A stretch of 64,000 nucleotides of DNA from an uncultured bacterium (GCA_963977015.1 CAXBMO010000027.1:23733-87732), one strand, 5' to 3'. Shown: positions 4,698 to 63,353, numbered from the stretch's first letter. A program made the numbers and translations. The notes: a model not told the origin generated them from the sequence alone.

Positions 4698-4724
4698 AGG
4701 GGCGCAACCGAAATCGAGCCGCGA

Positions 4725-5405: not shown

Positions 5406-5514
5406 CGCGGCGATGATAGCATGAGAACCTGAGCAAAGGATGACGAAATCCGGATGTCCCGACGGTCACCCGCTTTTTGCTTGCCGGATTTCCGAATTGC
5501 AGCGTCGATGAATC

Positions 5515-6306: not shown

Positions 6307-6390
6307 AGCGGTTGGTGAGAGTTGATTCTCTCAAATCGCGAACGCGATCAAACATTCTGCGCCGGGCGCTGTCAAAACCCCGAACCTCCT

Positions 6391-10632: not shown

Positions 10633-11696
10633 GCCGAATCATCATTAGTTTTCTTGCCTTGGTCACGGCGTTTTCCGGACAAGTTCAGGCTCAGGGCGAG
10701 ATTGCTCAGAACGTCTTTTCTCAATACCGCGCCGAAGTTGATAAAGCGACGGATGCCGGACTTGAGTATCTCAAAAAGAATCAGCAAACCGAGGGGCATT
10801 TCCCGGGCCGACATGGCGATTCGACCGGGATCGTGGGATTGGTCGGAATGGCTTATCTTTCGAAAGGACATATCCCGGGATTTGGCCCGTATGGCGAGAC
10901 GATCGACCGCTGTATTGACTACGTTTTAAAGTATCAACAGAGCAACGGGCTCCTGGATCGGCGCGACACTTCTGGGCATGGCCCCATGTATGCGCACAAT
11001 ATCGCGACGCTGTTTTTGTCCGAAGTCTCCGGGATGGTTGATCCGGAGCGGCAAGACAAGCTCGATCCTGTTTTGGCCAAGGCGACGGAACTCATCCTGC
11101 GAGCTCAGGCGGTGTCGAAGAGCAAAGCATTTGTTGGTGGCTGGAGATACAAGCCGGATTCCCGCGATAGCGACCTCTCCTGCTCGGGATGGGCTCTCAT
11201 GAGTTTGCGCTCGGCAAAGCTCAATGGAGCGCCAATCCCCGATGAAGCGATTCAGAGCGCCGTCGAATACGTATTTGCCCGCCACGACAAACGCTTGGGA
11301 ACGTTTGGGTATACCGATACGCGTGGACACGCCGATTCTCTGACGGGGTGTGGTCTGTTGTGCCTCGAGCTGTGTGGATACCACGGTCACGAATCCACCT
11401 ATAAAGCCGGGGAATATATCTTGAACAACTTTCGTAATCTGCCGCGGAGTTCCCACGAATATTATGGGAATTACTACAACGCTCAGGGCATGTTTCAGCT
11501 GGGTGGGAAATACTGGGAGAAGTATGCGGAATGGATGTATACCTACTATATTCCCAAGCAGAAACCGACTGGCTCCTGGCACTCCCGTAGCCACGGAGAA
11601 ATTTACGGCACGGCGATGATGGTTCTTTCGTTTACGGTTCCGTATCGGCAATTGCCGATCTATCAACGAGACGAGACTGTCGACGAAGAGAGCTAG
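10629..11696 (+). CDS. Prenyltransferase/squalene-oxidase repeat (alpha/alpha-barrel) protein, exported
   Basis: Signal peptide; repeats such as LEYLKKNQQTEG, GGWRY..DSDLSCSGWALMSLRSA and QKPTGSW. ATGA overlap with the upstream gene. Confidence 0.8.
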   Translation: MSRIIISFLALVTAFSGQVQAQGEIAQNVFSQYRAEVDKATDAGLEYLKKNQQTEGHFPGRHGDSTGIVGLVGMAYLSKGHIPGFGPYGETIDRCIDYVLKYQQSNGLLDRRDTSGHGPMYAHNIATLFLSEVSGMVDPERQDKLDPVLAKATELILRAQAVSKSKAFVGGWRYKPDSRDSDLSCSGWALMSLRSAKLNGAPIPDEAIQSAVEYVFARHDKRLGTFGYTDTRGHADSLTGCGLLCLELCGYHGHESTYKAGEYILNNFRNLPRSSHEYYGNYYNAQGMFQLGGKYWEKYAEWMYTYYIPKQKPTGSWHSRSHGEIYGTAMMVLSFTVPYRQLPIYQRDETVDEES

Positions 11697-11896
11697 CGGA
11701 ATTGTTTTCGGGTTTTGGCTCAGTTCATTCGCGTCATCTGTCCACTGACTTCCGGGCCGGCGTATTAGAAGCGGGTTGGAGAACCTTGATCAAGAGGGGA
11801 GTAAGCCGATGGTCGGTATATTATTTAATAAATATTGAATTTCTGGTTATTGTTATTATGTTTTGCTGTTTCTAGAGGTTTTCTAGAGCCGCTTTC

Positions 11897-14113
11897 ATGA
11901 AATCCTACCTCTTCACCTGCTCAAGCTGCGGAACGCAAATGGCGTTTACGGAGAATCAGGCTGGTTTGGTGGGGCCTTGTGGGGGATGTGGAATCAATAT
12001 TGAAGCCCCTCTGCCGTTTCAATCGAAGTCGATACCAGTCGGAATTTCATCCAGCGAATCGGAGGAATTGGAACGGAGAAGGGCGGAGGAGCCAAGTCTC
12101 GGGAAGTTGATCACCCCCCAGGGCAACTTTGTCGCGCTGAGAGGTGAATACATTCGCTTTGGTTCAAGCATCAACTGTGATGTCGTGATTGCCGATTGCT
12201 ACGGAGTTTCCGACGAGCAATTTCGTCTCGCCGAGGATGATGATCGTCATATTCTCGTGAATCTTGCTCCCAACGAAAATCAGACTCGGGTGAATGCGAT
12301 GGCGGTTTGTGAACGGCCGTTGAAGGATCAGGACGTCATTTTCGCGGGACAGCTTCGCCTGACGTATCGTGCTCCCACGATTGGTAAAGAGGAGCAGAAG
12401 GTGAAGGAGACGAATCGCCAGAGCTATGCCCGGGCGGCCATCATTGGTGCGATTGCGTTGCTGTTGGTGTTCGTTATTGCGGACTTTGCCGGAAGTCCTA
12501 CTCCCGAAAGGAAGAAAACTCCGGAACGTTCTGCCCCGATCGTGATGCCTGGAAAGGAACCGAGGAAGCCAACGCCTCCTCCCGTTCGAACCGTGCCGCC
12601 TTCTCAGCCACTTCCCCCGCAGAATGCGGTTGCCGCGGCTTATCCGACAGTTTCACCCGGGTACACTCCTCCCGGTGTTGGTCCCAATGATAACAGTCTG
12701 CCCTACAACGTCGTTGCTGCTCCTGATCGTCAAATGGTTCAAAACGTCCGTCGATCGCAGGTTCATCAGGCGTCGTTTGATCATGTAACGCTTTACGAGG
12801 AGTCCGTCGTCAACCACTACGAGCAGGTCTTGGTCGATGCGTATCTCGCGAACGGCCACCGCAGTTGGAAGTGGGATCGAGAGGCAATCACGGCGTTGAA
12901 TCTCTTCGCCAGGATCTATACGGGAGAAGGAGTTGCCTTCAGTCGGAGCGACTTTGCCGCCTTAAAGAGAGCGGTAACCCATTGTATCCAGGCAGGGTGC
13001 CGGGATGCGGCGATTCTCCATGCGAAAGAGCGAATTCAAAGCACGGAATACGGACTCATTGCGAAAGCCGGAGATCCGAGTCCATCGCCAACCTTGGATG
13101 AACAGGTTCTCGCGGCCTATCCTGCTGAAGTCCGGGCTCCTTCTTATCTTCATAAAATGAAGATGAGCGCGGGAAGTGAAGATAAGAAATCAAAGGAAGC
13201 CATCATGGCGGAGCTGATTGATAGCACGGCAGAATGGAATGTGAACACCAATGATCCTTATCTCTCTACGGTGTATTGGGATCATGTAGAGCAGGCTACG
13301 ATCGCCGCCGTAAATGTGATGGAAGGGAAGACGAAGTCGGTCGTTAACCGTTTTGACACGTCTTTCAAGATGCATTCCGTTCCGCAGGAGGTTCGCGATG
13401 TCTTTCGGACAGCGGTGCCGGTTTGGTTGGCGTGGAACGACCGGGCCGAGAAACCGGATGACGAAGACGGCGATTTGGCGGAGCTGGGTTTGGCGAGAAA
13501 CCGTCTGGAGCAATTTTGGGATAATGGGCTCCAGATGCCGATCGTTCCCGAATTGATGCTCAAAGTTGCCCTGATGTCTGGTGAGAAGGAACTCTTCAGC
13601 CTGTGGTATGATCGCTCTATCATGTTGAATCCCGAGGATCCAACCCCTTACCGGCTCAAGGCTGAGTTTCTCAGCCCCAGCAACTACGGTGATGTTGCTG
13701 AACTAACCGCCTTTGCCGACTCGCTGATTGACGAAATGGATTCGCCCAACCTCCCGTGGTTGGGGCTGGAAGTTTACGCCAAGCTCAATGGTATGATCGA
13801 CAACGATTTTGCGAAGCGGACTGAGATCTGGAAGCGGGTTTCATCGACGTTCGACACATTCTTCAAACGTTATCCCGATGCGCATTTTCGCAAAGCGCAG
13901 CGGGCCGCCATATCCTGGGAACTGGGATACGAAGAGGAAGCGCGCGAACAGCTGGAGGAGACGGGGCTCGATTACGCCGCTTTCACCATTAACTTCAAGC
14001 CTGAGTTGCTGGGCGAAGAGTCGCCCCATGAGCAAATGATGAAGGACGTGGAGGAGGCGGAATTCAGAAACCGATTGGAAGGCGCGATTCTGGGGGGTGG
14101 GAAAAGAGGCTAA
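11897..14113 (+). CDS. Multidomain membrane protein: Zn-ribbon, degenerate FHA domain, TM helix, Pro-rich linker, helical C-terminal domain (DUF4034-like)
   Basis: CSSC..CGGC; FHA-like IRFGS..CDVVI...VS...QTRVN...LKDQDVIFAG; TM AIIGAIALLLVFVIA. Confidence 0.6.
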   Translation: MKSYLFTCSSCGTQMAFTENQAGLVGPCGGCGINIEAPLPFQSKSIPVGISSSESEELERRRAEEPSLGKLITPQGNFVALRGEYIRFGSSINCDVVIADCYGVSDEQFRLAEDDDRHILVNLAPNENQTRVNAMAVCERPLKDQDVIFAGQLRLTYRAPTIGKEEQKVKETNRQSYARAAIIGAIALLLVFVIADFAGSPTPERKKTPERSAPIVMPGKEPRKPTPPPVRTVPPSQPLPPQNAVAAAYPTVSPGYTPPGVGPNDNSLPYNVVAAPDRQMVQNVRRSQVHQASFDHVTLYEESVVNHYEQVLVDAYLANGHRSWKWDREAITALNLFARIYTGEGVAFSRSDFAALKRAVTHCIQAGCRDAAILHAKERIQSTEYGLIAKAGDPSPSPTLDEQVLAAYPAEVRAPSYLHKMKMSAGSEDKKSKEAIMAELIDSTAEWNVNTNDPYLSTVYWDHVEQATIAAVNVMEGKTKSVVNRFDTSFKMHSVPQEVRDVFRTAVPVWLAWNDRAEKPDDEDGDLAELGLARNRLEQFWDNGLQMPIVPELMLKVALMSGEKELFSLWYDRSIMLNPEDPTPYRLKAEFLSPSNYGDVAELTAFADSLIDEMDSPNLPWLGLEVYAKLNGMIDNDFAKRTEIWKRVSSTFDTFFKRYPDAHFRKAQRAAISWELGYEEEAREQLEETGLDYAAFTINFKPELLGEESPHEQMMKDVEEAEFRNRLEGAILGGGKRG

Positions 14114-50629: not shown

Positions 50630-52114
50630 CTAATTCTCCCAGACTTCGTAAATCAGGGTTGCCTCACCAAACTTCGCGGCGCTCGAAGTTGCTGCGCCAC
50701 GGGTGCTCAGCCGGTCGATGCGTTGCTCTTTTACGCTCTCAAAGAGTGTGCTGGCCCATCCCTGATTGTGGAGATCGGTGAACTGCTTCGTCGATGCGAC
50801 GGCTTTGAGAATTTCGCTTCCGTAGGGTGCGCCCATTTCAAACTCAAAACCATCTCCGGCGGTTGGAATCACCACGGGGGCGCCTTTCTTGATGAGATTG
50901 GTCGATTTTACCTTGTTGGGGAAAATCTGTAACACGTCACCTTCCGCGTTTTGGTAGTAAAGTCGCAGGTAACAATCCTGATCGGCGCTGACTCTGACGA
51001 CAAGTTTGTCTCCCGCTCGAAAGATGCGCTGGTTGGTTGAGAGTTCGAGCTTGATATCTCCCGTTGTAACCACGCCACTGTTGCTGACTACCGCATCCGC
51101 GTTCGAGCCTTCAGGAACGAAATTCACCGAAATCCCGCGGGCTTTTTCCGTTGAACTTTTGACCGGTGCATTGCCGGCCTTGCTTTGCACAAAGGTTGCG
51201 ACCTTGGTGCTGGAGGATGGAATCTCGAATTGGGCGTGTTGCTTCGATGCATTTCGACTGATGCGGCGAAGTTTTCCGACGAGGTCATCAACCCGGCGGT
51301 CGGTTGCCTTCCGCATGTCTCCGAAGGAAAGGTTGGGATTCGACCTCAACACCTCGCAAAGCGAGTAGGTTAGGACTCCGGCGGATTGTTTCTCGCTCAT
51401 TCCCAAGGCGGCGAACCGGGCGGCAGAGATTTCGTTGGCCAATTCCCCCGAACCGGATGCCGCCAGAACGTAGTGCTTGGGGTTGGAGCGGATTCGCGAA
51501 AAGAACTGATTTTCCTGCTTCTTCGGCAACGTCTTCTTCCTTTTTCCAAAAAAGCCCAAGGGCAGGCCTCGGGTTTCGGAGAATTCCGGCGGATCCGCCC
51601 GTGTTCCGGTTCCGGAATGGCAGCAATCCAGAATCACGAGTACGTTTGCCGTCGGAACGCGGCTCAGGAGATGGCGGATGATGTCGTCGGTCAGCCACGT
51701 ATTCGGTCTGGTTGGATCAATATCGTGAGGGCAGAGCGCCTCATCTTCGCCGTCAGACTCATCACCATTGAGGTCGGGCGTTTGTGAGCCGTGACCGGAA
51801 AAATAGAAAATCACGGAGTCGTTGGCCTTGACCCCGTTGATGAGATGCTGCTCAAAGGCGGACATGATCCCGGCTCGGGTTGCCGAGCGGTTCGTCACGG
51901 TGCGAATCGAACTCGCAGGAACGCCATAGGTGCTGGTGAGGAGGGATTTGAAGCGATTAACATCGTTCACGCAGCCACGCAGCGAAGGCACGGGATCCGG
52001 ATAATCGTCGATCCCGACGAGGAGGGCGTGAGTGGCTCCCCAACTATGGGAAACAAGGAGGCAGGCCAACGCGAAACCGAGTTTGGCACGGTTTAGAGGG
52101 TTTCTAAGCTTCAT
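50630..52114 (-). CDS. Exported caspase-family (C14, metacaspase-like) peptidase with C-terminal DUF4384 domain
   Basis: Signal peptide; ALLVGIDDY, LRGCVND, catalytic FSGHG and LDCCHSG; C-terminal GDKLVVRVSADQDCYLRLYY....QIFPN...APYGSEILKAVAS. Confidence 0.9.
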   Translation of the reverse strand: MKLRNPLNRAKLGFALACLLVSHSWGATHALLVGIDDYPDPVPSLRGCVNDVNRFKSLLTSTYGVPASSIRTVTNRSATRAGIMSAFEQHLINGVKANDSVIFYFSGHGSQTPDLNGDESDGEDEALCPHDIDPTRPNTWLTDDIIRHLLSRVPTANVLVILDCCHSGTGTRADPPEFSETRGLPLGFFGKRKKTLPKKQENQFFSRIRSNPKHYVLAASGSGELANEISAARFAALGMSEKQSAGVLTYSLCEVLRSNPNLSFGDMRKATDRRVDDLVGKLRRISRNASKQHAQFEIPSSSTKVATFVQSKAGNAPVKSSTEKARGISVNFVPEGSNADAVVSNSGVVTTGDIKLELSTNQRIFRAGDKLVVRVSADQDCYLRLYYQNAEGDVLQIFPNKVKSTNLIKKGAPVVIPTAGDGFEFEMGAPYGSEILKAVASTKQFTDLHNQGWASTLFESVKEQRIDRLSTRGAATSSAAKFGEATLIYEVWEN

Positions 52115-52162
52115 GGTTAGGAAGAGGGCAACAGGGATTGCTCAAATGTGGAGAAAGTCTCC

Positions 52163-52330
52163 CTAGTCAAGTCCGGCCCCGCTGCTGCGTCCCCAGGCAC
52201 CATAGCGCTGGTCCTGGCCCAGTCCTTTGCTGCCGTCGCCATCGTCCGCCCCGGTCGGTGTGGATTCGCATGACGTGAGAATGATGCCCGCAGCGAGCAG
52301 CGATAAGATTGTCCAAACAGCCTTTTTCAT
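52163..52330 (-). CDS. Small (55 aa) lipoprotein, below the ORF-track cutoff
   Basis: Manual translation: MKKAVWTILSLLAAGIILTSCESTPTGADDGDGSKGLGQDQRYGAWGRSSGAGLD*. It has a basic N-terminus, hydrophobic core and lipobox LTS-C, and fills the gap between two co-oriented genes. Confidence 0.8.
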   Translation of the reverse strand: MKKAVWTILSLLAAGIILTSCESTPTGADDGDGSKGLGQDQRYGAWGRSSGAGLD

Positions 52331-52363
52331 AATTGATAATTGCAGACGATCAGGAGCGCCATG

Positions 52364-55300
52364 TCAAAGGGATTCTGTCAGGGTCTTCAGCCGATCCTGA
52401 AGCTCAAGGAGGGGCGGCACGCCGGGTTCCGGCTTGAGCATGGCCGCGACAAGGGTGATCCCCTGCTTGGAAAAGGTCTCGATCAGGGGTTGCAGCGTGG
52501 GCGGCGCGTTGACAATCATTGCTTCAACCTCGCCCAATGCCCGGTTCAAAACCTGAAACGCGGTGCCAAAATCGACTTCCGGGTTTGCCTCAATCAATTC
52601 CGTAAACGTTTTCAGGCTGCTCTCGTAGGCGGCGACCACCGGCGCGTTGTCGTTGGTGAGCTTGTGGGCTTGGGCACGTTGGTAGTGGGAAATCGCGAGG
52701 TTGGAAAGCGTATCGGGTTCTCCAGGTTGCTCGGCAAGGATCTGTTCGAGCAACTTGTCAGCGGAATCGAGGCTTTGGAAGGCGCGACTGGCCTGTTCCA
52801 GTTTGATGAAGGCTTTTGCCTGATTGATCAGGCTGTCGGAAGCGCTGAAACGGGCAAAATCGGGCGCGCTTTTCTCGACCAGTTCCCACCGATTCACCGC
52901 GTCGTCGAAGGTCGCGACCGCCGCCTCAAACTCGCCGGAAGCTCGATGCGTTTCGGCAAGATCATGGGTCACCGATGCCAGTTTGCCGAGCAATTTGGGA
53001 TCCACCGTTTCGTCGCCGGCTTTTGCCACCATCTCATCTCCTTTCTCGATTGCAGAGGTGTAATACTCCTTCGCGAGATCAAATCCGCCGCCACTCTGAT
53101 GAAACCGGCCCAAATCAGCCAGACTGAGAAAGAGCGATTCTTGGATCGTCGCGATTTCTTCTGCCTGGACCGCCGCTTCCATAATGTTTTTCAGCCCCTT
53201 CTTGTGTTCTTCGAGCGCCTGTTCGTATTGCTCGTTCCGGGTCAGCGATTCCGCCAACAGGTGGTGGGTCACTCCCAGTTCACGACGCCAGATCGCGTTG
53301 CGCGGTTCGCGTTTCACTAGCGTGGAGAATTCGTCGATCGAGCGTTGCAGCGTTGCCGGCGCTTTCTCCGGTTCGGTCTGCTGAAGAATGCTCCCGAGCG
53401 CCGAATAGATCCGGGCGACGCGCGAAACGTTGCGAAGATCATTGGGATCCTGCGTCTCGATCACCTCCTTCGCAGCCGTGTAGTTTGCTGTCGCAGCTTT
53501 CACGTCACCGCCAAACAACGCGACCGAGCCGCGATGATCGAGCGCGTCGAATTTGATTTGGGCAAGCTCGGAATTGTCACCCACCTCATCGGCAATCGCG
53601 ATCGATTCATCATAGGCGATCATCGCTTCGTCAGGCCGATTGAGGTTGCGTTGGGTGTCGCCAAGAAAACGCAAGGCGAGGGACAGGAGTTGCCGAAACT
53701 CGACCGACTCCAGGTTCGATTTGTGAAGCCTCTCCAGCGCCGACACGCTGTCCATCAGGTATCCCTCAGAGTCGCTGACCTGATCCGGCAACTGCGAAAG
53801 CGCGTCCCCGAGCCAAAGTTGGGTCTCCGCGATGAGCCGCTCCTTCTCCTCCGGCGTGGGTGGTTCAAAGCGGGAGGCGGTCAGCTCCTCCAGCGTTCCC
53901 TGCAGATTTTTGGCTGCGATGTCGGCTCTTCCCAAGGTGCGATAAATCTTCGCCCGCGAAATTTCGAGGCGCACCCGGCTCGCGAAGGCATCCCAATTGC
54001 TCGGCGCCTCCTTTTCCGCATACGCATCGACTTTCTCGATCACGCCTTCCGCCAACTCGAGCCGTCCCGTGCTCTCCAGCTTCGACTGCAAATCCTCCAG
54101 CATGAACGAAATCAGTTGATCGGCATCGCCGCGTGCATCGACCGCCTCGTTCTTTTGGAACCACGCGAAAACTCCACCGGCAACGGCCGTGATGGTAAGG
54201 GCGCTCAATCCCGTCATCACCGCCCGGCGAACTCGGGTCGCGCGCTTTTGCCGGGCGAGGGCGTGATCCCGGGAAGCTTTGATGAACCCGCGTGCGGCCG
54301 CGTATTCGTCTCCTTCAAGCAGGTGCGGCGCATGATTCGCCAAACTCAGCCCCTCCTCCAGTTCCAACCCTTCCGGCAAGAGGAGCGAGGTATGCTCCTT
54401 GTTCGTCTTCCAGCGCTTCATCGCCTGCTCCACATGGGAGCGGATTCGCAAGTGCTCGCGGTTGGCGCTGACCCAGTTCGAAACCCGCGGCCAACGGCGT
54501 AACAACGCCTCGTGCGCGAGGGAAACCGTCGCCACATCATCGCCGCCGGCCGTGAGCAGGCGCGCTCCAATCAGCGCATCAATCAGAGCCTTGCGTTCCT
54601 TCGTATCGGCGAGTTTGTTCTTGGCGGCGCGACGCCGGGTCGCAAACGCTTCGGTATTGGCATCGACGGTCACGAGCGCGTGGAGCAAGCTGCCAAACGC
54701 GTCCTGCTGCTTTTGGGTAAGGCCGGTGAAGAGGTTTTCCGCCCGTTGGCTCAGCGCGCCTTCCAGCCCGCCCAGCGAATCGTAGACCTTGAACGTCAGC
54801 TCGTTGTCGCCGGTGCGATGCTCGTAGAGTTCCAGCAGCAGATCCTGGAGCAAGGGGAGGGTGTCCGGCTGCTTTTGCGCCTCTTCCAGAATTTTGGAGG
54901 AAAGGCGGAGTCCGCCCTGTTCCTGACTATGTTGCTCAAACTTGACTCCGGCCATTCGAGCCGGCTCCTCGATAATGCGGCGAAGCGCGTCCGGCCCCGG
55001 CGCGAGCAGATCAAACTGCCCGGTGTCCCCCTTGAGATTCAGAAAAATCTGGGATTGCTGCGCGATCGCGTAGAAGTCGCTCCGCATCGTCACGATGACC
55101 CAGCAACGTCCGCTTTGCGCGAGTTCGCCCAGGGTGTTGAGAAACTCCGTCCGGTCCTCGTCGCTGATGCGCTTGTCGGTGAACAGCTCCTCAAACTGAT
55201 CGATCACCAAAAGCAGCTTCACGGTTCCTCCCGCATTCGCCGAAGCCGCGTTCAGGGCTTCCAGCGCGGTCCCCGCGAGATTGGAGCGCAGTTTAATCTG

Positions 55301-56272
55301 CCACTCCGGCAAGGCCCCTTCCTCCTTCAACGCGTCGGTTAAGGCATCGAGAATCTTGCCCTCGGCCTGTCCCGGCATCAACACCGCGGATCGCCAGGCG
55401 GCGACCGATTCATCCAAATTGTACTTCGTCAGGTTCGCGCGAAGCCCGGCTCGCACCATCGACGATTTTCCGCTGCCGCTTGCGCCAATCACCGCCACGA
55501 ACGCGCATCCATCGACCGGGTCCGTCTCGCGCTGGCGCAGCAACTCCTCCAGCTTCCAAACCTCTTCCTCGCGCCCAAAAAAGATGTCGGTGTGCTCCAG
55601 GTCAAACGCCTCCAGGCCGCGATACGGCGCATCCATCCAGCGGGCGTGAAGCCGAACATCGCTTTCGTCGAGGTGACGGTCGATCAACTGGCGCAAATGC
55701 ACCTTCAGCCGCCCGGCAAAGTCCACCGGTTGTTGAAAGCTGTGATAGGCTCGCGTGTTGTGGCCCTGCTCATCGTGGAACATCTCCCCAATGAACTGCT
55801 CCACCATCGCGCGCTGGTGGACCATGTCCTCAAACTGGGCACGATCGGACTGAGCCGACAGCCGGCGGTTGTAGGAATCGTCGTCATAGCGGCGATAAAA
55901 GATCATGTCCGGGCGAGCGCCGCCGGTTGCCTCCGCCGCCATCAGCATCATGTCGAACTCGCGCTCCGTTCCGCTCCGATACGGGCTTCCGTCCGGCTTC
56001 GTGATTCCTCCCAAGGGCGAACCGAGCCGGCTCCAGAGAATAAACGCCGCGATGTCGATTCCCGCCTCATTGGAAACCACCATGTCCACTCCTTCCTGGA
56101 ATGAGGCGTTCGGCCCCAACGGCAAATCCTCCCACAAGACGGGCAGCAGCACCACCGCATCACCATACCAACGCTGCAGTTGCTCGATTACCAACTTTGA
56201 TTTTTCCCGCTCTTCCGCGACATCGCCGGGTGAACTGATGAATATGCGGATCGTCTTTGGTTCCATTTCCAT
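52364..56272 (-). CDS. NLR-like STAND NTPase: DUF4062/TIR-like effector, nSTAND1 NTPase, TM helix, TPR-like repeats
   Basis: RIFISSPGDVAEER...SGTEREF; PYRGLEAF....IFFGRE; Walker A GASGSGKSS; Walker B VIDQFEELF; LPLLQ; HEALLRRW; TM AVMTGLSALTITAVAGGVFAWF; helical repeats. Start 56272 or 56266, with GGAGG upstream. Confidence 0.88.
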   Translation of the reverse strand: MEMEPKTIRIFISSPGDVAEEREKSKLVIEQLQRWYGDAVVLLPVLWEDLPLGPNASFQEGVDMVVSNEAGIDIAAFILWSRLGSPLGGITKPDGSPYRSGTEREFDMMLMAAEATGGARPDMIFYRRYDDDSYNRRLSAQSDRAQFEDMVHQRAMVEQFIGEMFHDEQGHNTRAYHSFQQPVDFAGRLKVHLRQLIDRHLDESDVRLHARWMDAPYRGLEAFDLEHTDIFFGREEEVWKLEELLRQRETDPVDGCAFVAVIGASGSGKSSMVRAGLRANLTKYNLDESVAAWRSAVLMPGQAEGKILDALTDALKEEGALPEWQIKLRSNLAGTALEALNAASANAGGTVKLLLVIDQFEELFTDKRISDEDRTEFLNTLGELAQSGRCWVIVTMRSDFYAIAQQSQIFLNLKGDTGQFDLLAPGPDALRRIIEEPARMAGVKFEQHSQEQGGLRLSSKILEEAQKQPDTLPLLQDLLLELYEHRTGDNELTFKVYDSLGGLEGALSQRAENLFTGLTQKQQDAFGSLLHALVTVDANTEAFATRRRAAKNKLADTKERKALIDALIGARLLTAGGDDVATVSLAHEALLRRWPRVSNWVSANREHLRIRSHVEQAMKRWKTNKEHTSLLLPEGLELEEGLSLANHAPHLLEGDEYAAARGFIKASRDHALARQKRATRVRRAVMTGLSALTITAVAGGVFAWFQKNEAVDARGDADQLISFMLEDLQSKLESTGRLELAEGVIEKVDAYAEKEAPSNWDAFASRVRLEISRAKIYRTLGRADIAAKNLQGTLEELTASRFEPPTPEEKERLIAETQLWLGDALSQLPDQVSDSEGYLMDSVSALERLHKSNLESVEFRQLLSLALRFLGDTQRNLNRPDEAMIAYDESIAIADEVGDNSELAQIKFDALDHRGSVALFGGDVKAATANYTAAKEVIETQDPNDLRNVSRVARIYSALGSILQQTEPEKAPATLQRSIDEFSTLVKREPRNAIWRRELGVTHHLLAESLTRNEQYEQALEEHKKGLKNIMEAAVQAEEIATIQESLFLSLADLGRFHQSGGGFDLAKEYYTSAIEKGDEMVAKAGDETVDPKLLGKLASVTHDLAETHRASGEFEAAVATFDDAVNRWELVEKSAPDFARFSASDSLINQAKAFIKLEQASRAFQSLDSADKLLEQILAEQPGEPDTLSNLAISHYQRAQAHKLTNDNAPVVAAYESSLKTFTELIEANPEVDFGTAFQVLNRALGEVEAMIVNAPPTLQPLIETFSKQGITLVAAMLKPEPGVPPLLELQDRLKTLTESL

Positions 56273-56380
56273 TGGCCCTTGTGCCGCTCCTCCTATCTCA
56301 GGAAACGCCATTTCGGTCAAGGAGGAAAGCCCTCGCCCTCAAAGCGTAACCAATCGGAAAATCGCGGCGTCTTGGAAACT

Positions 56381-56917
56381 ATGACTGCGATCGTTCACAA
56401 ACTCTTCGTCCTCAGCCTCGTTTTTGGAGCGGTTTCCAGCCCCCTCGCCGCCGCCGAACGCACCGCGCAGGAAATCGAGGCAAACGCGGGCGAACTCGTC
56501 GGTCAACGCGTTACCTTGGACGTCGCCTGGCTCAAGCTCCTGCGTCACTCCGGCAACCGCAACCAGTACGCCGTCATCGCTGCCTACACCTGGGATGAGG
56601 ACAGCGAGCGCCTCGGCGGAACCATTCCCGTTGTTATCGACAGCGAAGGCGCGAAACGGTTGCTCTCGCGTTACGAAGCCAAGCCCGACGGCCGCCTCAC
56701 CTGGTTCAGTGGCGTCGACCTCGACACCAAACGGCTGTCTGGAACCCTTCGCCGCGGCGGTGAGGATCGCAATCTCTACATCGACCTCACCAGCGGCCCC
56801 TCCAGTCCAATTGGACTCAATCTCGCCAGCGAAATGGACGCCAAACGCAGCGAAATCGAGGCCAAAATCAGTGAGGCCATCGCGCAGAAGGTGGAGGAGC
56901 TGAAGAACAACAACTGA
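56381..56917 (+). CDS. Hypothetical exported protein
   Basis: Signal peptide MTAIVHKLFVLSLVFGAVSSPLAA and consistent codon usage; divergent from the STAND gene. Confidence 0.7.
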   Translation: MTAIVHKLFVLSLVFGAVSSPLAAAERTAQEIEANAGELVGQRVTLDVAWLKLLRHSGNRNQYAVIAAYTWDEDSERLGGTIPVVIDSEGAKRLLSRYEAKPDGRLTWFSGVDLDTKRLSGTLRRGGEDRNLYIDLTSGPSSPIGLNLASEMDAKRSEIEAKISEAIAQKVEELKNNN

Positions 56918-56933
56918 GTAGGAATAATGGAGG

Positions 56934-59900
56934 TTACGGGGTTTTGGGCAGCTCCAGTAGCTGATGCCCCGGAAGGAACCGTCCGGGCATGACAGGAAGC
57001 CCGCCGCGACCGACGAGGATGAAGCTGTTGCGCTGGCCGGGAATCTTGATCGTGCAACGCTCCTGAAGGTCGTTGCTTGAATCGAGCAGCGCGGCGTCGA
57101 GGGCGGCTTGAGCGGCACTCAGGTCGCTGAGGGCATCGATCCGGACTTCACCGTCCGTGCCGAAATCAGAGGAGGCGGTGATGCTGCTGTTGTTCTGAAA
57201 AAGGACGTCGCTGCCGATCTGGATGAAGCCGCCGGTGCCGAGAATCGCGTTTGCGCTGAGAATGCTGTTGTTAAGGAGGAGGAAGCGGGCGTCATCAATG
57301 ATGATGTTGCCGCCATCGCTGCCGGCCTCGGCAATGATTTGGCTGTTATCGAGCCGGATGGTGTCGGGCACGCGGATCTCGATGTTGCCCGCGTTTTGAC
57401 CGGCCCGTGCTGTAATGGAACTGCTGTCGAGGAGCAGGTTGCTCCCGCCGTCGAGAAAGATGCTACCCGCGTTAGTAAGCAGCGATTCCACGTTGATGGA
57501 GCTGCCGCTGCTCAGGATGATGTTGCCGACCGAGTCGATGTCGATGCTGCCCGCGTTGCCGGCTCCCGCGCTGCGCGAGCTGATCGTGCCGTTGTTGGAG
57601 AGGCGCAGGGTGTTGCGGCCAGTCACGTTGAGATCGATCGATCCGGCGTTGCCCGAACCGGTCGATTCGGCGAAGATCCCGGCTCCTGAGCCGCTGATGT
57701 TGATGTCGCGAACGGTGGCGGTGATATCGCCGCCACGCCCCGAGCCCGAGGTGCTCCCTCGGATCGACGATCCATTGAAAATGTTCAAATCGGTCAAGGA
57801 ACGCACGTTGATGTTTCCGGCGCGCCCCGATCCGGCGGTCTGCGCCTCGATCCCGCTGCCGTTGCCTGTCATGGTGATGCGATTCGCCCCAACCTGGACA
57901 CTGCCGCCCTGGCCGCTGTGCAACGTCGTCGCGCTGACATTGCCGCCGCTGCTCATCGCGATCTGTTTGGCGTTGAGCCGGATGTTGCCGGCATTCCCCC
58001 TTCCCCGAGAAACGGCTTCGATCCCTGCGCCGCCCTGGAGCAGAACGCGATCTCGAGCTGAAACCGTGATGTTGCCGCTGCTGCCGGAGCCGAGCGTGGT
58101 CGCGCTGACCCCGGCTCCGCTGTTCATGAAGAGATTGCCTGCCGCCAGACTCACGCTCCCGGCGTTGCCGGAGCCCCGTGTCTCCGCCTCGATCCGCCCT
58201 CTATTCCTCAGCGTCGTATTCCCCGAGGTCTGGACCGTCACCGTTCCGCCTTGCCCGGTCCCGGAAGTTGTCCCGCTCACCCCTCCACCATTCTGGACGG
58301 TCAGCGTAGCCGCTGTGATTCCCAAGGTTCCCGCATCACCGCTTCCTGCAGCTTCCGCCGAAATTCGGCCCGCGGAATCCACCGCGATCGTGTTACCCTG
58401 AACGGTAATGCTTCCCCCATGGCCGCTTCCGGAAGTGGTGGCGCTGACTCGGCCGCCATTGCGAACGGTCAGGAAACTGGCGACTGCCAAGTCGATGCTT
58501 CCGGCAGAACCCGTGCTTTGCGCCTGCGCCTCGATGACGCCTCCGTCAATCAACATGTCGCTAGCGTCGACGGCGACATTGCCTCCCTGACCGCTACCGG
58601 AGGTCGTTGCGCTCAGGCTGGCTCCACCGCCTAGATTCACCGCATTGGCCGTGACACTCACGCTACCGGCATCGCCGGCGCCACTCGTCGTCGATGAGAC
58701 GGAGCCATTACCAGTTATCGCCAAGGCGTCGGTAGTGATGTTGATCGTTCCAGCGTTGCCGGGCCCGGAGGTCCTGGTCGTGAGAAATCCACCGCTCGAG
58801 ATGTTCAATGCAGATGTGCCAATCAGGATATCGCCTGCATCTGCAGCCGTCTTGGTTTCTGAAGTCACAAAGCCGCCGCTGGAAATGTTCACCTCTCTTC
58901 CGCGAATGGAAACGGTTCCTGCCCGCCCCCTACTTGCGGTCTGTGTGGTGGAGAAACCTCCATCTGAGAAGGTGATAATGTTGCCCGTGAAGTTGACTTG
59001 GCCGGCATTGCCACTGCCGAGTGTTTGAGAAGTTACAAATCCACCTTTGGAGATGGTGAGTTGATTTCCCGACAAGGTTACGACTCCTGCTTGCCCCTCT
59101 CCTTCGGTGCGGGAATCAATCGCTCCCATTAGATTGGCCGTGTTGGCCACTATGTCGATTCGGCCTGCGTTCCCAGCCAACTCGCCATCGGGAACATATT
59201 CACCCGTGGTGAGGGAACGGATTTCACCCGTGGGTGCAAGGTTAAGTTCTCCAACATTCAACGCAACAGTCCCAGAGGTTCCGCTCGTTTCTGTTTGCGT
59301 GTCAATCGATCCCGAGACATCCAACCTTCCTCCACTAATGTGGATGCTCCCTGCGTTTCCCCAATTTGGCTCAACGATTCGCTTCGCGAGTTCACGAATT
59401 CTTTCATACTGCAGCGCGATAAGCACTTCTGTCGCGGTAAAGGAGTTCAACTGGCGACCGGCAAACTCAGGGTTATTATGGAATCCACCGGGATTTGCCA
59501 GTTCGGCGTTGATTGCATTAATAGCCTCGGAGGTGTCGACCGCGCCGAATTCTGCCAGTTTTTCTATCACTGCGACCCCGGAAAGAGCCGTCGATGAATC
59601 CACCACACCACTATTCTCCAATTCCTCAATCCTCAAGGCTGAATCAATCCTCTCCAGCCTGAAATCGGTAGGATCCAGGATTGTGTAGCCCAATTCTTCG
59701 AGGAATGCTGCGCCAGAATCGAACTCTCCGGACACCTGACCCAATGAAATGTTCTGAACAACGACCTCGGAGGTGGATAACACAGTGCCCCGGACTTCAG
59801 CATGATTCGCATTGATTGAAATATTTCCGGCATTGCCAGTCGAGCGGGTTCGGGAGTTGATTGTACCGTCTACAATCACTGACTGCGCTGCAGGTTGGGA

Positions 59901-62900
59901 AAGTCCACGGATAGTGATATTTCCTGCGTCTCCGAACTGCCTTCCCTCAGGTCCATTGCTTCTTGAGTCGGAAAACAAGAATCCGTTCTCATTTAAATGG
60001 AGTTCATCCGTCCGGATTTCGATACTGCCTGCGGGGCCAATACCTCCTCGTGCGCTTACTTCGATGCTAGAAATAGTTATTCGCGGTGCCTCAAGAATAA
60101 CATCACCACCTTTTCCCTGGTTTAAGGTTGCCGAGCTGATGGTTTGAGTAAGGCTACGTCCATCCAGGTTGATTTCATTGGACGCCTTGATTGTAAGATC
60201 GCCTGCATTGCCAGTTTTGCTGCCTGCCGAGTTTGATTTGATCGATCTGGATCTGTTGAATAGCCTCAAATCGTTCACCTCGATCGTAATGTCTCCGGCG
60301 TCTCCAATACCTTGTGTCGTTGTGCTGATTTTGGCGAAATCTTGCATCAGGAGCGTATCTGCCGTGATTGCGATATCTCCACCAGTTCCTTTTACCGAAA
60401 ATGTCGATATTTGTCCGCCATCCAAGCTGATAGTGCCGGCCGATGATGCATTGGGATCACTATGGTCGGCCTTTGAAACATGAATCGTTATACTGCCTCC
60501 ATTACCCACACCATCGGGAAGCCGGTTGCTGGGGTCTTCACCTCGGGCCAAAATGAATCCCCTGGAGCCAGTTACATTGAGGCTTCCTGTTTGAACAAAA
60601 ATGTCGCCTGCGCTTCCAGCGCCCGTTGTTTTGGAACTGATGGGGCCGAGCAATTCAACTGAATTCGCGAAAATTGCAATCGAACTTGCATCATGGTCAG
60701 ATGGTGTGCCTGTGGTAAAGCCCTGGGTCTTTGGCACGGTGAAGGTTCCGGTGCGAAAGGTGATATCTCCAATTTCTGTATCAGGAAAGGCTGTACCAAA
60801 GTTGATGCCCCCGTCAATGGAGATGCTCGTGTCCGCTTCGATGATAAAGTTGGGTTTGCCCGGTATTGAAGTCGGATTGGTGAGAAGGATTTCTTTTCCG
60901 ACAGCTCGCAGAGCCGGCTCGCCGCCAACGTAGCCAGTCGAGGTCAACGACAGAACATCAGGGAGATTTAGGAAAAGAACATCATTGGGCCCAACGCGAC
61001 TTGCTATGTATTCCCCGCCTTCCGCTTTCCCGGTTACCGGAGCATTGCCAAAGGAGATGTTTCCAAAGTCGTTGGGCCCGACTTGGACGGCTCCCGTGAT
61101 GTGAACGCTTGTTTGATCGGAATCGACTCCATTGACGTCGCGAAAAAGGATATCCGGGGCGTCGCCGACGAGAAAGTCCTCTCCCGCCTCTGGATTCAGA
61201 ACCCGGGTCGTGGTCACGTTTCCGGCAATCTCGGTCGCAACGGCTTGGAAATGAATCGTGCCGGCCCGAACCCGGTTTAGATCGTTTCGGGTTGCTTCAG
61301 ACTGGATGCTGGCGGCCGCTCCGATTGAGATCGTTCCTCCCGAAATCGTGATATTGCCGCCAGAACTGGGATCGGTTCCGTCCACGCTGGATGAACCCAG
61401 AGCCGAGGAGGAAATGGTGCCGCCGGCCATCTCAAACCGGGCATCGGCGATTCCCTGGCTGGCGTCGGTGGAGGCGAAAATGGAAAGGTCGCCGCCAATT
61501 CCGGTGTTGAGGCCAATTGACGAAAACGTGCCTCCATTGAAATTGACCTTTCCGACGCGGGCCAGGGATCGGCCAATTTCAATCAACCCGCCATCTCCGG
61601 TGCTCTCGGTCGTGGTGTTGACGGTTCCGGAGTTGAGGGTGAATTGATCCGCGGCCAGCAGGCTGACATCTCCGCCGGTTCCTGCACCCGTGGTCAACGT
61701 GGTGATGTTGCCGCCGTCGACCGTGATTTCAGGTGCGTTGATAGTGACCGCGCCTCCGTCTGAATTGACGCCACTGGTTCCGATTTTCCCGTCCGCACTG
61801 GCGGTAACGCTAGTCGCTGCAGTCAGATTCAAGGATCCACCTGGAGCGCTTCCGGTGGATTGCGTTCCCAGGAAACTATTGGCTCCGGAGACGGAAACGG
61901 TATCGGCGAAAATCGCGATGTTGCCGCCGATTCCGGCATTGGATGTTTCCGACAAAATCGAACCGCCGTTGGTCAATTCCAGACCATCCGCGTTGATCGT
62001 GAGCGTTCCCCCTGCGGCAGACGCCATTCCACTGGTTTCGGTCACGATGGAGCTACCAGCGCCATCAATTGCGACATCTCCGATTGTGGTGATCCCAATG
62101 GCTCCGCCTGGCCCGGAACCGCTGGTGGAGGACTGGATCAAGCCGCCGTTGGTCACGGACAGGTTTGCAGCATTCAGAGTTAGCGTTCCGCCAGCGCCGG
62201 ACAAAGTGGTTTGCGTGCTGATTGTGGCGGGGCTGGCATCTCCAATGACGTTGAGGTTCCCAGATGCGGTGAGTTGGATGTTTCCGCCAGGTTGAGCTGA
62301 ATGGGTGACCGACTCGACGACTCCCGGCATCGTGGGAGTCGATTGGATGGTGATGTCGCTGCCGGCATCGATGAAGATGTTTCCGCCACCGTTTCCGGAA
62401 TTCGCGGTTGAGGTGATGGCGCCGTTGACGATGGCCGGTCCGCTGACTTGGATGTCGATGTCTCCGCCCCGACCGGTTGCGAAATCGGTGGAAGTAATGG
62501 AGCTGCCACCTTCGACCGTCAGTTTTCCTCCCCGAATCACCACATTTCCGCCGCTGGTTGAGGAAACATTCGACCCGATGGCGCCGTTCAGGGTGACGCT
62601 GGCGGTTTCGGGCAGCGTCAGGTTGATGACGGGGAGGGAAGGGGGATTGGTCACGTCGAGAGTGGTGGTGGCACCAGGAGGGGCCGCGACCAGGTTGGTT
62701 CGTCCAGAGGTTGGCGCGATGGTGCTGTCGGTGATCTGGACGGAGCCGCCGAGGAGATGAATCGAATCGGCGCTGCCTGCTCCCCAGTTGACTCCGTTCA
62801 GGGTGATGGCGGAATTGGGCCCGAGGAAACCGAACGAAGCGACTTTGCCCGTCACCGTGGCCGGTAGCGCGCTTGCGGTTGCGGCGAACGTGCCTCCACC

Positions 62901-63353
62901 TTGGAGCGTCATCCGATCGGCTGTCGTGGCGGTGAACGCGCCGGTGATGTTGAGCGAAGCGCCGTTGCCGAAAATGACGCCGTTCGGGTTCATGAAAAAG
63001 AGGTTCGCCCCGGCATTGATCGCGCCATTGATCGAAGAGGGGGCCCCGCCAGTCACTCGCGTCAGGACGTTGTTCACGCCGTCGGTCTCGAAGTTGGCGG
63101 ATTCCAGATTGTCCAGATTGAAGGACTCGAAACTGTGAAAGAGGTTGGCGCCAACTTCTTCGCCCCGCGCCTTGAGAATTTCGTAGAGGGGGCCGGTAAG
63201 GGTCAGTTCGTCAGCGGAGAGATCTCCGCTCAGGTCGAGGTCGTCGTGGATGCCGATCGATCCGTCGAACTTGATGCTCTGTCCGTGGATGATTCCCGAG
63301 AAAGCCAGTGTCCCCAGCACTAGCCATCCAAGCAAAAGAGGTTTTTGAATCAT
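56934..63353 (-). CDS. Filamentous haemagglutinin-like two-partner secretion exoprotein (TpsA), 2139 aa
   Basis: Signal peptide; TPS domain NLFHSFESFNL..RVTGG..NLFFMNPNGVIFG; many G(N/D)AGxIxI beta-helix repeats; C-terminal C...SFILVGRGGLP motif. Confidence 0.92.
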   Translation of the reverse strand: MIQKPLLLGWLVLGTLAFSGIIHGQSIKFDGSIGIHDDLDLSGDLSADELTLTGPLYEILKARGEEVGANLFHSFESFNLDNLESANFETDGVNNVLTRVTGGAPSSINGAINAGANLFFMNPNGVIFGNGASLNITGAFTATTADRMTLQGGGTFAATASALPATVTGKVASFGFLGPNSAITLNGVNWGAGSADSIHLLGGSVQITDSTIAPTSGRTNLVAAPPGATTTLDVTNPPSLPVINLTLPETASVTLNGAIGSNVSSTSGGNVVIRGGKLTVEGGSSITSTDFATGRGGDIDIQVSGPAIVNGAITSTANSGNGGGNIFIDAGSDITIQSTPTMPGVVESVTHSAQPGGNIQLTASGNLNVIGDASPATISTQTTLSGAGGTLTLNAANLSVTNGGLIQSSTSGSGPGGAIGITTIGDVAIDGAGSSIVTETSGMASAAGGTLTINADGLELTNGGSILSETSNAGIGGNIAIFADTVSVSGANSFLGTQSTGSAPGGSLNLTAATSVTASADGKIGTSGVNSDGGAVTINAPEITVDGGNITTLTTGAGTGGDVSLLAADQFTLNSGTVNTTTESTGDGGLIEIGRSLARVGKVNFNGGTFSSIGLNTGIGGDLSIFASTDASQGIADARFEMAGGTISSSALGSSSVDGTDPSSGGNITISGGTISIGAAASIQSEATRNDLNRVRAGTIHFQAVATEIAGNVTTTRVLNPEAGEDFLVGDAPDILFRDVNGVDSDQTSVHITGAVQVGPNDFGNISFGNAPVTGKAEGGEYIASRVGPNDVLFLNLPDVLSLTSTGYVGGEPALRAVGKEILLTNPTSIPGKPNFIIEADTSISIDGGINFGTAFPDTEIGDITFRTGTFTVPKTQGFTTGTPSDHDASSIAIFANSVELLGPISSKTTGAGSAGDIFVQTGSLNVTGSRGFILARGEDPSNRLPDGVGNGGSITIHVSKADHSDPNASSAGTISLDGGQISTFSVKGTGGDIAITADTLLMQDFAKISTTTQGIGDAGDITIEVNDLRLFNRSRSIKSNSAGSKTGNAGDLTIKASNEINLDGRSLTQTISSATLNQGKGGDVILEAPRITISSIEVSARGGIGPAGSIEIRTDELHLNENGFLFSDSRSNGPEGRQFGDAGNITIRGLSQPAAQSVIVDGTINSRTRSTGNAGNISINANHAEVRGTVLSTSEVVVQNISLGQVSGEFDSGAAFLEELGYTILDPTDFRLERIDSALRIEELENSGVVDSSTALSGVAVIEKLAEFGAVDTSEAINAINAELANPGGFHNNPEFAGRQLNSFTATEVLIALQYERIRELAKRIVEPNWGNAGSIHISGGRLDVSGSIDTQTETSGTSGTVALNVGELNLAPTGEIRSLTTGEYVPDGELAGNAGRIDIVANTANLMGAIDSRTEGEGQAGVVTLSGNQLTISKGGFVTSQTLGSGNAGQVNFTGNIITFSDGGFSTTQTASRGRAGTVSIRGREVNISSGGFVTSETKTAADAGDILIGTSALNISSGGFLTTRTSGPGNAGTINITTDALAITGNGSVSSTTSGAGDAGSVSVTANAVNLGGGASLSATTSGSGQGGNVAVDASDMLIDGGVIEAQAQSTGSAGSIDLAVASFLTVRNGGRVSATTSGSGHGGSITVQGNTIAVDSAGRISAEAAGSGDAGTLGITAATLTVQNGGGVSGTTSGTGQGGTVTVQTSGNTTLRNRGRIEAETRGSGNAGSVSLAAGNLFMNSGAGVSATTLGSGSSGNITVSARDRVLLQGGAGIEAVSRGRGNAGNIRLNAKQIAMSSGGNVSATTLHSGQGGSVQVGANRITMTGNGSGIEAQTAGSGRAGNINVRSLTDLNIFNGSSIRGSTSGSGRGGDITATVRDINISGSGAGIFAESTGSGNAGSIDLNVTGRNTLRLSNNGTISSRSAGAGNAGSIDIDSVGNIILSSGSSINVESLLTNAGSIFLDGGSNLLLDSSSITARAGQNAGNIEIRVPDTIRLDNSQIIAEAGSDGGNIIIDDARFLLLNNSILSANAILGTGGFIQIGSDVLFQNNSSITASSDFGTDGEVRIDALSDLSAAQAALDAALLDSSNDLQERCTIKIPGQRNSFILVGRGGLPVMPGRFLPGHQLLELPKTP
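56947..57338. repeat. Direct repeat (copy 1; copy 2 at 63609-64000, may extend past the window)
   Basis: Ungapped alignment at offset 6662; the encoded peptides differ at 10 of 131 residues by manual comparison. Confidence 0.9.

Follow-up and report, generated by a model that had tools for sequence, protein, structure and literature searches.

A candidate membrane-spanning NLR-like receptor gene beside genes for a predicted micro-lipoprotein and an exported caspase in an uncultured bacterium

Three closely spaced genes on one strand

The window analyzed here, a 64,000-nucleotide stretch of DNA from an uncultured bacterium (GCA_963977015.1, CAXBMO010000027.1:23733-87732), carries three minus-strand open reading frames (ORFs) in the order NLR-like gene, small lipobox ORF, and caspase-DUF4384 gene (Table 1). 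The gaps between them measure 33 and 48 bp, and a consensus scan found neither a terminator-like nor a promoter-like site in either gap. The tight spacing on the minus strand described in a first-pass annotation, made by a model from the sequence alone, is borne out, and the layout is operon-like. The NLR-like protein is best seen as a new TPR-type member of a known but experimentally untouched family of membrane-spanning NTPase-NADase receptors.

The ATG of the NLR-like gene is preceded by GGAGGAG, with an in-frame alternative start (TTG) at 56320; a protein database entry (P0004) is the same 1302-amino-acid (aa) product that the ATG start gives. The window is chromosomal and belongs to a genome of 6.9 Mb with 56% GC. 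Its closest public relatives are labeled Verrucomicrobiales, and the sequencing runs that contain the stretch are labeled marine metagenome, with no RNA run among those listed. Base composition does not single out the three-gene block, whose GC content at third codon positions (GC3) is 0.64-0.73, compared to 0.64-0.75 in neighboring genes.

Table 1. Coordinates of the three genes, of the modules of the NLR-like protein, and of the genes beyond its start, counted from the first letter of the window.
Feature	Position	Strand	Description
NLR-like gene	52364..56272	minus	1302 aa from ATG 56272; TIR-like N-domain, nSTAND1 NTPase, transmembrane helix, TPR ectodomain
DUF4062-like (NIR, TIR-fold) N-domain, putative NADase effector	55658..56272	minus	motifs RIFISSPGDV, LWED, SGTEREF
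nSTAND1 NTPase module	54392..55627	minus	Pfam PF20703; Walker A GASGSGKSS and Walker B LLVIDQFEE
Predicted transmembrane helix, single	54158..54226	minus	basic stretch QKRATRVRR directly before
TPR solenoid	52367..54157	minus	about 600 aa, predicted periplasmic; several TPR families
55-aa lipobox ORF	52163..52330	minus	lipoprotein signal and Gly/Asp/Ser-rich tail
Caspase-DUF4384 gene	50630..52114	minus	494 aa, Sec-signal, Peptidase_C14 and DUF4384
Signal-peptide gene	56381..56917	plus	178 aa, between the NLR-like and TpsA genes; block boundary
TPS-domain (TpsA) ORF	56934..63353		2139 aa; sole TPS-domain ORF confirmed in the window

Domains and predicted fold of the NLR-like protein

The first-pass annotation had described a protein of about 1300 aa with an intact nSTAND1 NTPase, one transmembrane (TM) helix, and about 600 aa of TPR-like repeats, and the translation agrees with it throughout. 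PF20703 was matched at an E-value of 1.1e-95 (321.9 bits against a cut-off of 27.1) over profile positions 1-377 of 379, and the Walker A (GASGSGKSS) and Walker B (LLVIDQFEE) motifs are intact.

The N-terminus had been called DUF4062/TIR-like; its modeled fold is TIR-like, and its DUF4062 score is sub-threshold. A Pfam scan of the whole protein gave no DUF4062 match, and when the N-terminal 234 residues were scanned alone PF13271 was matched over positions 1-80 of 82 with an E-value of 0.0075 and 16.9 bits (cut-off 24.7). The same N-domain was found in 3383 proteins at E<=0.001 and in 365 at E<=1e-30 in a HMMER scan of 1.84 billion representatives, mostly in proteins of 1000-2300 aa with the domain at the start. 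An alignment of 44 sequences showed RIFISSPGDV, LWED, IDIAVFILWSRLG, and SGTEREF to be invariant or nearly so, and both glutamates of the last motif (Glu103 and Glu105, numbered from the ATG) to be invariant.

An AlphaFold2 model built from the 44-sequence alignment had a mean predicted local distance difference test score (pLDDT) of 88.5. In a wide VIA-align search over 48,161 chains, its top eight structural matches were all TIR domains (Z 11.4-9.9), ranked as MAL TIR, TIRAP, TIR-SAVED, SfSTING, RPS4, TIR-STING, IL-1RAcPb, and SARM1; the MAL TIR match (Z 11.4) had a root-mean-square deviation of 3.0 over 137 residues. Nucleoside deoxyribosyltransferases and other Rossmann-like folds followed right behind, at Z about 9-10, a Foldseek search against the PDB returned mixed Rossmann-like folds with weak E-values, and querying PDB sequences with a profile made from the N-domain alignment gave a single chance-level match (E 0.096). 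As modeled, the N-domain is TIR-like in fold.

DUF4062 domains are described as TIR-like NADases with a catalytic glutamate at positions 97-108 in three 2026 preprints. Glu103 and Glu105 fit this range, a fit by position and not by superposition of structures. NADase activity of the N-domain would follow from its domain family. PADLOC matched no Avs model; its sole hits scored 22.6 bits for a P-loop match to mad3 and, on the N-domain, 18 bits for PDC-S60.

The TPR ectodomain was predicted with a chain pLDDT of 88-89 in the complex-prediction run described below. The homologues found for this part are confined to a sister lineage (P0005, 79% identity), loci L115 and L003, and weak matches to kinase-TPR proteins. 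Apart from the protein encoded in the window itself, a word-indexed search with the TPR part returned just one sister protein and two kinase-TPR proteins, both weak; because it gave so few matches, the TPR-type NLR architecture is either rare or was missed by the word filter. A whole-protein pattern search of genome contigs with P0001 gave 55 pattern matches with no relative among them. When 85 loci were searched by tblastn with single sequences of the nSTAND1, N-terminal, and C-terminal parts, nothing came up beyond the two same-genus paralogues, L003, and, weakly, a P-loop in L052.

Membrane topology is shared across relatives

The sole hydrophobic segment of the NLR-like protein spans P0001 residues 699-721, equivalent to 683-705 from the ATG. 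The 15 residues on its N side have charges of +6/-1 and the 15 on its C side +2/-4; the segment itself has a modest hydropathy of 1.71 over 19 residues and is Gly/Ser/Thr-rich. A TM segment occurs at the equivalent junction in P0005 of the sister lineage; the two closest paralogues within the genus and two encoded by the window genome have it as well.

For a wider comparison we used 79 relative loci fetched from species-representative genomes with the N-domain alignment, of which 44 held complete ORFs of at least 900 aa. A hydrophobic segment lies after the NTPase, between residues 640 and 900, in 40 of these 44 relatives, and in 39 of the 40 Lys/Arg residues are more numerous on the N flank than on the C flank (mean 5.55 versus 2.33). 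Since the segment and its positive-inside bias recur at these frequencies, the N-in/C-out orientation appears to be a property of the family and not of one gene. The topology calls, which use hydropathy and charge rules rather than a trained predictor, support the prediction that the protein spans the inner membrane with the NTPase and N-domain in the cytoplasm and the TPR part in the periplasm. The first-pass annotation had placed the sensor and effector on these same sides. It had also contrasted the locus with bacterial NLRs acting in the cytoplasm, which was too strong, as surveys already predict TM-type, periplasm-sensing STAND proteins.

The NLR-like protein belongs to a large family centered on Verrucomicrobia and Planctomycetes, with the sensor domain outside the membrane. 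The outer domains of the 40 TM relatives include WD40 in 18 and an FGE-sulfatase-like domain in at least six, and a TPR ectodomain like that of the window in one (L115). In other genomes, no full-length orthologue of the NLR was found among 40 relatives, the best matches ending at the TM helix. The closest same-genus paralogues have the architecture N-domain-nSTAND1-TM-WD40-FGE-sulfatase. The family core works without a caspase in nearly all relatives.

Several paralogue neighborhoods were recorded alongside. The closest paralogue, a 1544-aa protein at L001 (G002:C116, about 4254-12255), consists of the N-domain, nSTAND1, a short hydrophobic segment, WD40, and FGE-sulfatase, and next to it are encoded a reverse transcriptase, a TIR-FGE-sulfatase protein, and an HRDC protein; the arrangement resembles a diversity-generating retroelement whose target would be an NLR sensor that faces outward. 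Patatin-like phospholipase genes directly adjoin NLR paralogues at L086 (G000:C44), L171 (G003:C92), and L172 (G019:C146). The one in the window genome has a lipoprotein signal and begins 4 bp after the NLR gene, and those in the two other genomes (L171 and L172, called from a GGGxR motif by eye) lie just upstream of the NLR gene and carry no signal. The window genome also contains a split form (L087, G000:C25, 4242-12845), in which a separate 452-aa TIR protein is followed by a 923-aa nSTAND1 protein that has no N-domain, then by a SLOG-cluster2 protein and a 1154-aa protein with a lipoprotein signal and no family match. At L168 (9947-11254), a 435-aa protein joins the N-domain through a TM segment (residues about 242-262) to DUF4384, with no NTPase, and is a minimal effector-TM-DUF4384 form.

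A 55-aa predicted lipoprotein and an exported caspase

Bacterial lipoprotein signals combine a basic n-region, a hydrophobic run, and a lipobox ending in cysteine. The small ORF encodes each of these elements, namely MKK, the hydrophobic run AVWTILSLLAAGIIL, and L-T-S-C at residues 18-21, giving the signal MKKAVWTILSLLAAGIILTS|C. By these signal criteria the 55-aa product is a predicted lipoprotein, so that the earlier call holds at the signal level. The tail of 34 residues is Gly/Asp/Ser-rich and includes Lys35, Arg42, and Arg48. The ORF has a GC3 of 0.68, like neighboring genes, and is present as a called gene in the protein database, where a search among proteins of 30-97 aa found no homologue besides itself; domain-model scans gave no family match. 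In a strain of about 97% identity, a single contig runs from the start of the caspase gene across the small ORF to the end of the NLR gene, and the small ORF contains two 3-nt insertions, which would fit a maintained reading frame. Two further runs (X6 and X7) covered parts of the NLR gene.

The 494-aa product of the third gene was matched by Peptidase_C14 over aa 29-296 (1.1e-24, 87.9 bits against a cut-off of 21.4) and by DUF4384 (PF14326) over aa 365-443 (5.3e-22, 78.1 bits against 27). His108 and Cys165 are kept without exception in 14 full-length homologues spanning several phyla, all of which, at 27-42% identity, have a signal-peptide-like start and keep DUF4384. These results confirm the C14 caspase with a His/Cys dyad, signal peptide, and DUF4384 domain that had been proposed, and the conservation of signal peptides across the homologues supports its export. 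The model of the protein, which has a pLDDT of 73 and includes a Lys/Arg-rich, disordered loop at 168-212, finds its best matches among metacaspases (Foldseek 5.6e-13), and the NCBIfam model 'caspase, EACC1-associated type' scored 61.9 bits, short of its cut-off of 140. Together these signals support a predicted exported, metacaspase-like protease. Orthocaspases are reported to cut after basic residues (PMC6426788).

Caspase-DUF4384 genes have recurrent neighbors of their own. Among 13 of the 15 full-length loci, which the neighbor survey covered, a gene for an ECF (extracytoplasmic function) sigma factor adjoins the caspase-DUF4384 gene at L041, zf-HC2 anti-sigma genes occur at L041, L038, and L075, and between one and three small DUF4384 proteins, one of which carries LysM, are encoded beside it at L008, L020, L053, and L078. 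Cytochrome c-DUF4384 fusions also adjoin such genes, and further loci with this theme are L019 and L076. The pattern looks like an uncharacterized envelope signaling theme.

Linkage of the three genes in other genomes

The first-pass annotation had offered the trio as a candidate system and had named a lack of conserved linkage as speaking against it; in the genomes covered here, such linkage was not found. Loci were counted with one genome per species, and related ones among them are not independent. With a profile from the caspase family, for which the window served as positive control, no caspase or DUF4384 gene was found beside the NLR gene in any of the 79 relative loci; the sole further profile match was L168, where DUF4384 is fused within the matched gene itself. 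From the caspase side, 160 loci (80 from genomes and 80 from metagenomes, 2.08 Mb) contained an nSTAND1-like ORF once, a weak case at L052, and the N-domain not at all. DUF4384 was detected in 33 of 400 other genomes of the phylum, one of which has nSTAND1, on another contig, leaving none of the 33 with the two adjacent. The window genome itself has six nSTAND1 genes above the cut-off, five caspase places, and one DUF4384, which come together at the window locus only; the contigs of the five other nSTAND1 genes have no caspases. At L115, the relative with a similar TPR ectodomain, no caspase lies within 9.4 kb upstream or 1.5 kb downstream. A crude rule applied to the ORFs downstream of 46 relatives called six signal-peptide-like and one lipoprotein-like, and the small ORF had no detectable homologue even in the sister lineage having both large genes. 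All of this weighs against treating the three genes as a unit. Also on the debit side, and bearing on the receptor itself, are the DUF4062 score below the Pfam cut-off and the reliance of the topology on hydropathy and charge rules. What the trio represents is a local arrangement rather than a conserved system.

A sister lineage comes closest to repeating it. Its NLR protein, P0005, has 79% identity to that of the window over the TPR part and 92% over the N-domain, and its caspase, P0009, has 81% identity to the window caspase. The longest contig is 64,685 bases for both, which suggests that P0005 and P0009 are on one contig; adjacency of the two genes there would follow from this equal figure, an indirect reading that counts with the points above.

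Another genome of the same genus, G003, appears to have lost the block. At L169 (G003:C743), about 70 bases replace window positions 50678-56344 between flanks of 83% and 73% identity, and 32 codons of the caspase 3' end survive as a relic beside the 178-aa gene. Given the joined flanks and the caspase relic, a single deletion removed the block. This loss shows the block to be dispensable and old, and does not thereby make it one functional unit.

A neighborhood of comparable composition was found at L003 (G001:C25, 5786-17000), where a 1017-aa TIR-TM-TPR protein is encoded divergently from a 751-aa caspase with a signal peptide; the TPR part has 27% identity to that of the window. L003 also encodes a 335-aa membrane-anchored protein beside the TIR-TM-TPR protein and a caspase-like-WD40 protein after the caspase. 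We considered a common ancestral TPR-caspase pair for L003 and the window and rejected it, as the L003 caspase did not group with P0003 in a FastTree phylogeny of 130 caspase domains, in which it sits on a long branch. Because the L003 caspase is no close paralogue of P0003, the two neighborhoods look independent. Linkage of an NLR with a caspase was thus seen solely in the one sister lineage, where it is probable rather than observed, and by analogy at L003.

Structure prediction of the TPR ectodomain with lipoprotein residues 21-55 gave scores of 0.39, 0.14, and 0.40 (overall 0.39), while the best of three controls reached 0.00. At least 55% of contacts are shared between the runs, the partner has a pLDDT of 44-45, and the prediction used a 3-row alignment. 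Of 80 solved complexes, 58 passed the mark set for such scores, as did 2 of 110 mismatched pairs; scores of 0.60 or below that still pass the mark were obtained by only 7 of the 80 solved complexes and by both of the passing mismatches. The predicted TPR-lipopeptide complex stands clear of its controls and lends weak support to the pairing. A pass at this level is more often wrong than right unless the complex was likely beforehand.

A tentative mechanism and its alternatives

The reading we prefer, which we hold tentatively and put at a little under an even chance, is that the lipoprotein and the caspase are functionally coupled to the NLR in a lineage-specific way. A periplasmic ligand, or a change at the TPR part, would cluster the NTPase modules; clustering would switch on the NADase, deplete NAD+, and arrest growth, with NAD+ depletion as the output suggested by the domain family. 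The lipoprotein and an Arg/Lys-type protease would form a lineage-specific periplasmic input module, in which the exported protease may cut the tethered lipoprotein tail or the receptor's outer part and so alter what the TPR part sees. The domains, the topology signals, the family pattern, the local layout, and which relatives have or lack the genes are observed, and from these we infer NADase activity, co-transcription, protease-receptor coupling, and the direction of that coupling. The 33- and 48-bp gaps, the sister lineage with both genes, the deletion of the block in G003, the bridging strain contig, L003, the metacaspase-like protease model beside a lipoprotein tail with Lys/Arg sites, and the TPR-tail score make coupling plausible, as may two analogies, namely the caspase-DUF4384 genes beside sigma and anti-sigma genes and the combination of TPR with a caspase-fold protease in DdvA (see below).

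The neighbors could instead have no functional link, the NLR being self-contained and the lipoprotein and caspase-DUF4384 protein an independent envelope module that landed in a variable region. We regard this as quite possible, if not what we would expect. The adjacency counts speak for it (0 of 79, 1 of 160, and 0 of 33), as do the caspase-DUF4384 family's own recurrent neighbors (sigma and anti-sigma factors, small DUF4384 proteins), the varied neighbors of NLR paralogues (patatin, TIR, SLOG, a diversity-generating retroelement), and the dispensability of the block in G003. It accounts less well for short same-strand gaps that lack a terminator-like site, for three products that all face the periplasm, for a sister lineage that keeps both large genes at about 80% identity, for a second, independent TM-TPR/secreted-caspase neighborhood in the genus (L003), and for the TPR-tail complex score, weak as its support is. 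Coupling of a looser kind does not commit us to the obligate three-part outside-in cascade that the first-pass annotation had sketched, in which the caspase makes or removes a lipopeptide ligand, the TPR part reads it, the NTPase oligomerizes, and NAD+ is depleted. This stricter version of coupling seems unlikely to us. The gene layout and topology signals would suit it, as would Lys35, Arg42, and Arg48 in a disordered lipoprotein tail beside a protease of metacaspase-like fold, given the basic-residue preference reported for orthocaspases (PMC6426788), and the TPR-tail score of 0.39 against a best control of 0.00 gives it weak support. Set against these are a small ORF with no detectable homologue, the sister lineage included, NLR relatives that work without such partners, and the tendency of weak complex passes to be wrong more often than right unless likely beforehand. 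Finally, the hydrophobic segment might not be a membrane helix at all, leaving the whole NLR cytoplasmic like Avs2-type DUF4062-STAND-TPR proteins. The modest hydropathy and Gly/Ser/Thr-rich composition of the segment would allow this, but paralogues and 40 of 44 relatives, many with a more hydrophobic segment, keep its position and basic N-flank, and L168 joins the N-domain via a TM segment to DUF4384, a domain seen here otherwise in exported proteins. We consider a cytoplasmic NLR very improbable.

Other features of the window

The first-pass annotation had pointed to adjacent tandem TpsA adhesins. One TPS-domain ORF does lie nearby, separated from the NLR-like gene by the 178-aa signal-peptide gene, whose product belongs to no known family and has 73% identity in G003. 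The ORF beyond the TPS-domain ORF is truncated by the window end and has no Pfam match, so a tandem arrangement was not shown. On the other side of the block, a molybdopterin oxidoreductase gene lies 475 bp downstream of the caspase gene. The remaining window consists of ordinary chromosomal genes; it includes a 1436-aa ORF on the plus strand (6322-10632) with no Pfam match at E<=1e-5, and an unusual AT skew of 0.39, with a GC skew of 0.14, at 8001-10000.

Significance of an outward-facing sensor

The characterized bacterial NLR-like defenses sense their triggers in the cytoplasm, and the window locus belongs to a little-studied branch with an outside sensor. The size of this branch is indicated by the N-domain alone, with 3383 representative clusters. 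The topology of the NLR resembles that of animal Toll-like receptors and would permit a response to periplasmic events before entry into the cytoplasm. In insects, a protease acts on Spaetzle, which in turn acts on Toll, a logic comparable to that of the three-part cascade. If the cascade were true, it would be a bacterial counterpart of this protease-ligand-receptor logic, and the role of a general 'site-1' trigger, acting on membrane transducers as varied as anti-sigma factors, kinases, and NLRs, would fall to exported caspase-DUF4384 proteases. The TPR variant, the protease, and the micro-lipoprotein offer a compact three-gene test of periplasmic proteolysis feeding a receptor, and if the neighbors are unrelated, the locus would still be a convenient entry to the membrane-spanning NLR family.

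Comparison with known systems

The closest described architecture is that of PsAvs2, a cytoplasmic DUF4062-STAND-TPR protein (bioRxiv 10.64898/2026.09.04.749371). PsAvs2 shares with the window protein a TIR-like N-domain with a glutamate near position 100, a central STAND NTPase, a C-terminal TPR part, and expected NAD+ depletion. The window protein differs in that its NTPase is nSTAND1, a predicted TM helix puts its TPR part outside the cytoplasm, and PADLOC assigns it to no Avs type. The word 'transmembrane' is absent from the main text of the three DUF4062 preprints, the part that was searched.

Surveys of nSTAND1/NACHT conflict systems (Kaur et al. 2020 and 2021; Kibby et al. 2022 preprint; Dore et al. 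2024) describe, in the parts consulted, STAND sensors diversified by retroelements (FGS/C-type-lectin), some of them predicted to be periplasmic, and name nSTAND1. Published surveys also consider that 'TM region' sensors of bacterial NACHT proteins probably read membrane or periplasmic signals. The window protein shares its NTPase clade with these systems, and its same-genus paralogues have WD40-FGE-sulfatase outer domains, one of them near a reverse transcriptase and an HRDC gene. Its own outer domain is TPR, a rarity in the family (1 of 40 relatives), and its gene is followed by genes for a lipoprotein and an exported caspase, which do not appear in the survey descriptions consulted.

In the EACC1-caspase system (Kaur et al. 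2020, System 4), as described in the part of that survey consulted, a small membrane-associated protein is encoded beside a caspase, sometimes with nSTAND1. The adjoining genes for a small membrane-associated protein and a caspase are a likeness to the window, from which the system differs in the type of caspase (61.9 against 140 bits on the EACC1-associated model) and in its export; the window's small ORF encodes a lipoprotein signal and matched no family.

DdvA/DdvS of Myxococcus xanthus (PMC11506125) offers a likeness of a different kind. DdvA is presented there as a solved single-pass anti-sigma factor with a periplasmic TPR-CHAT part, for which signaling by proteolysis is proposed. Like the arrangement at the window, it is a single-pass transducer of a defense response that combines a large periplasmic TPR with a caspase-fold protease. 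In DdvA, the TPR and CHAT are in one polypeptide with a cytoplasmic zinc anti-sigma domain, whereas in the window the metacaspase-like protease is separate and the cytoplasmic part of the transducer consists of an NTPase and a TIR-like domain.

The caspase-DUF4384 genes beside ECF sigma and anti-sigma genes share their protease family with the window, and there too the protease gene lies next to that of a membrane-spanning transducer. Among the 160 caspase loci, pairing of a caspase with an NLR-type gene occurred as one weak case only. What distinguishes the window is the nature of its transducer, an NLR-type NTPase-NADase instead of an anti-sigma factor or kinase.

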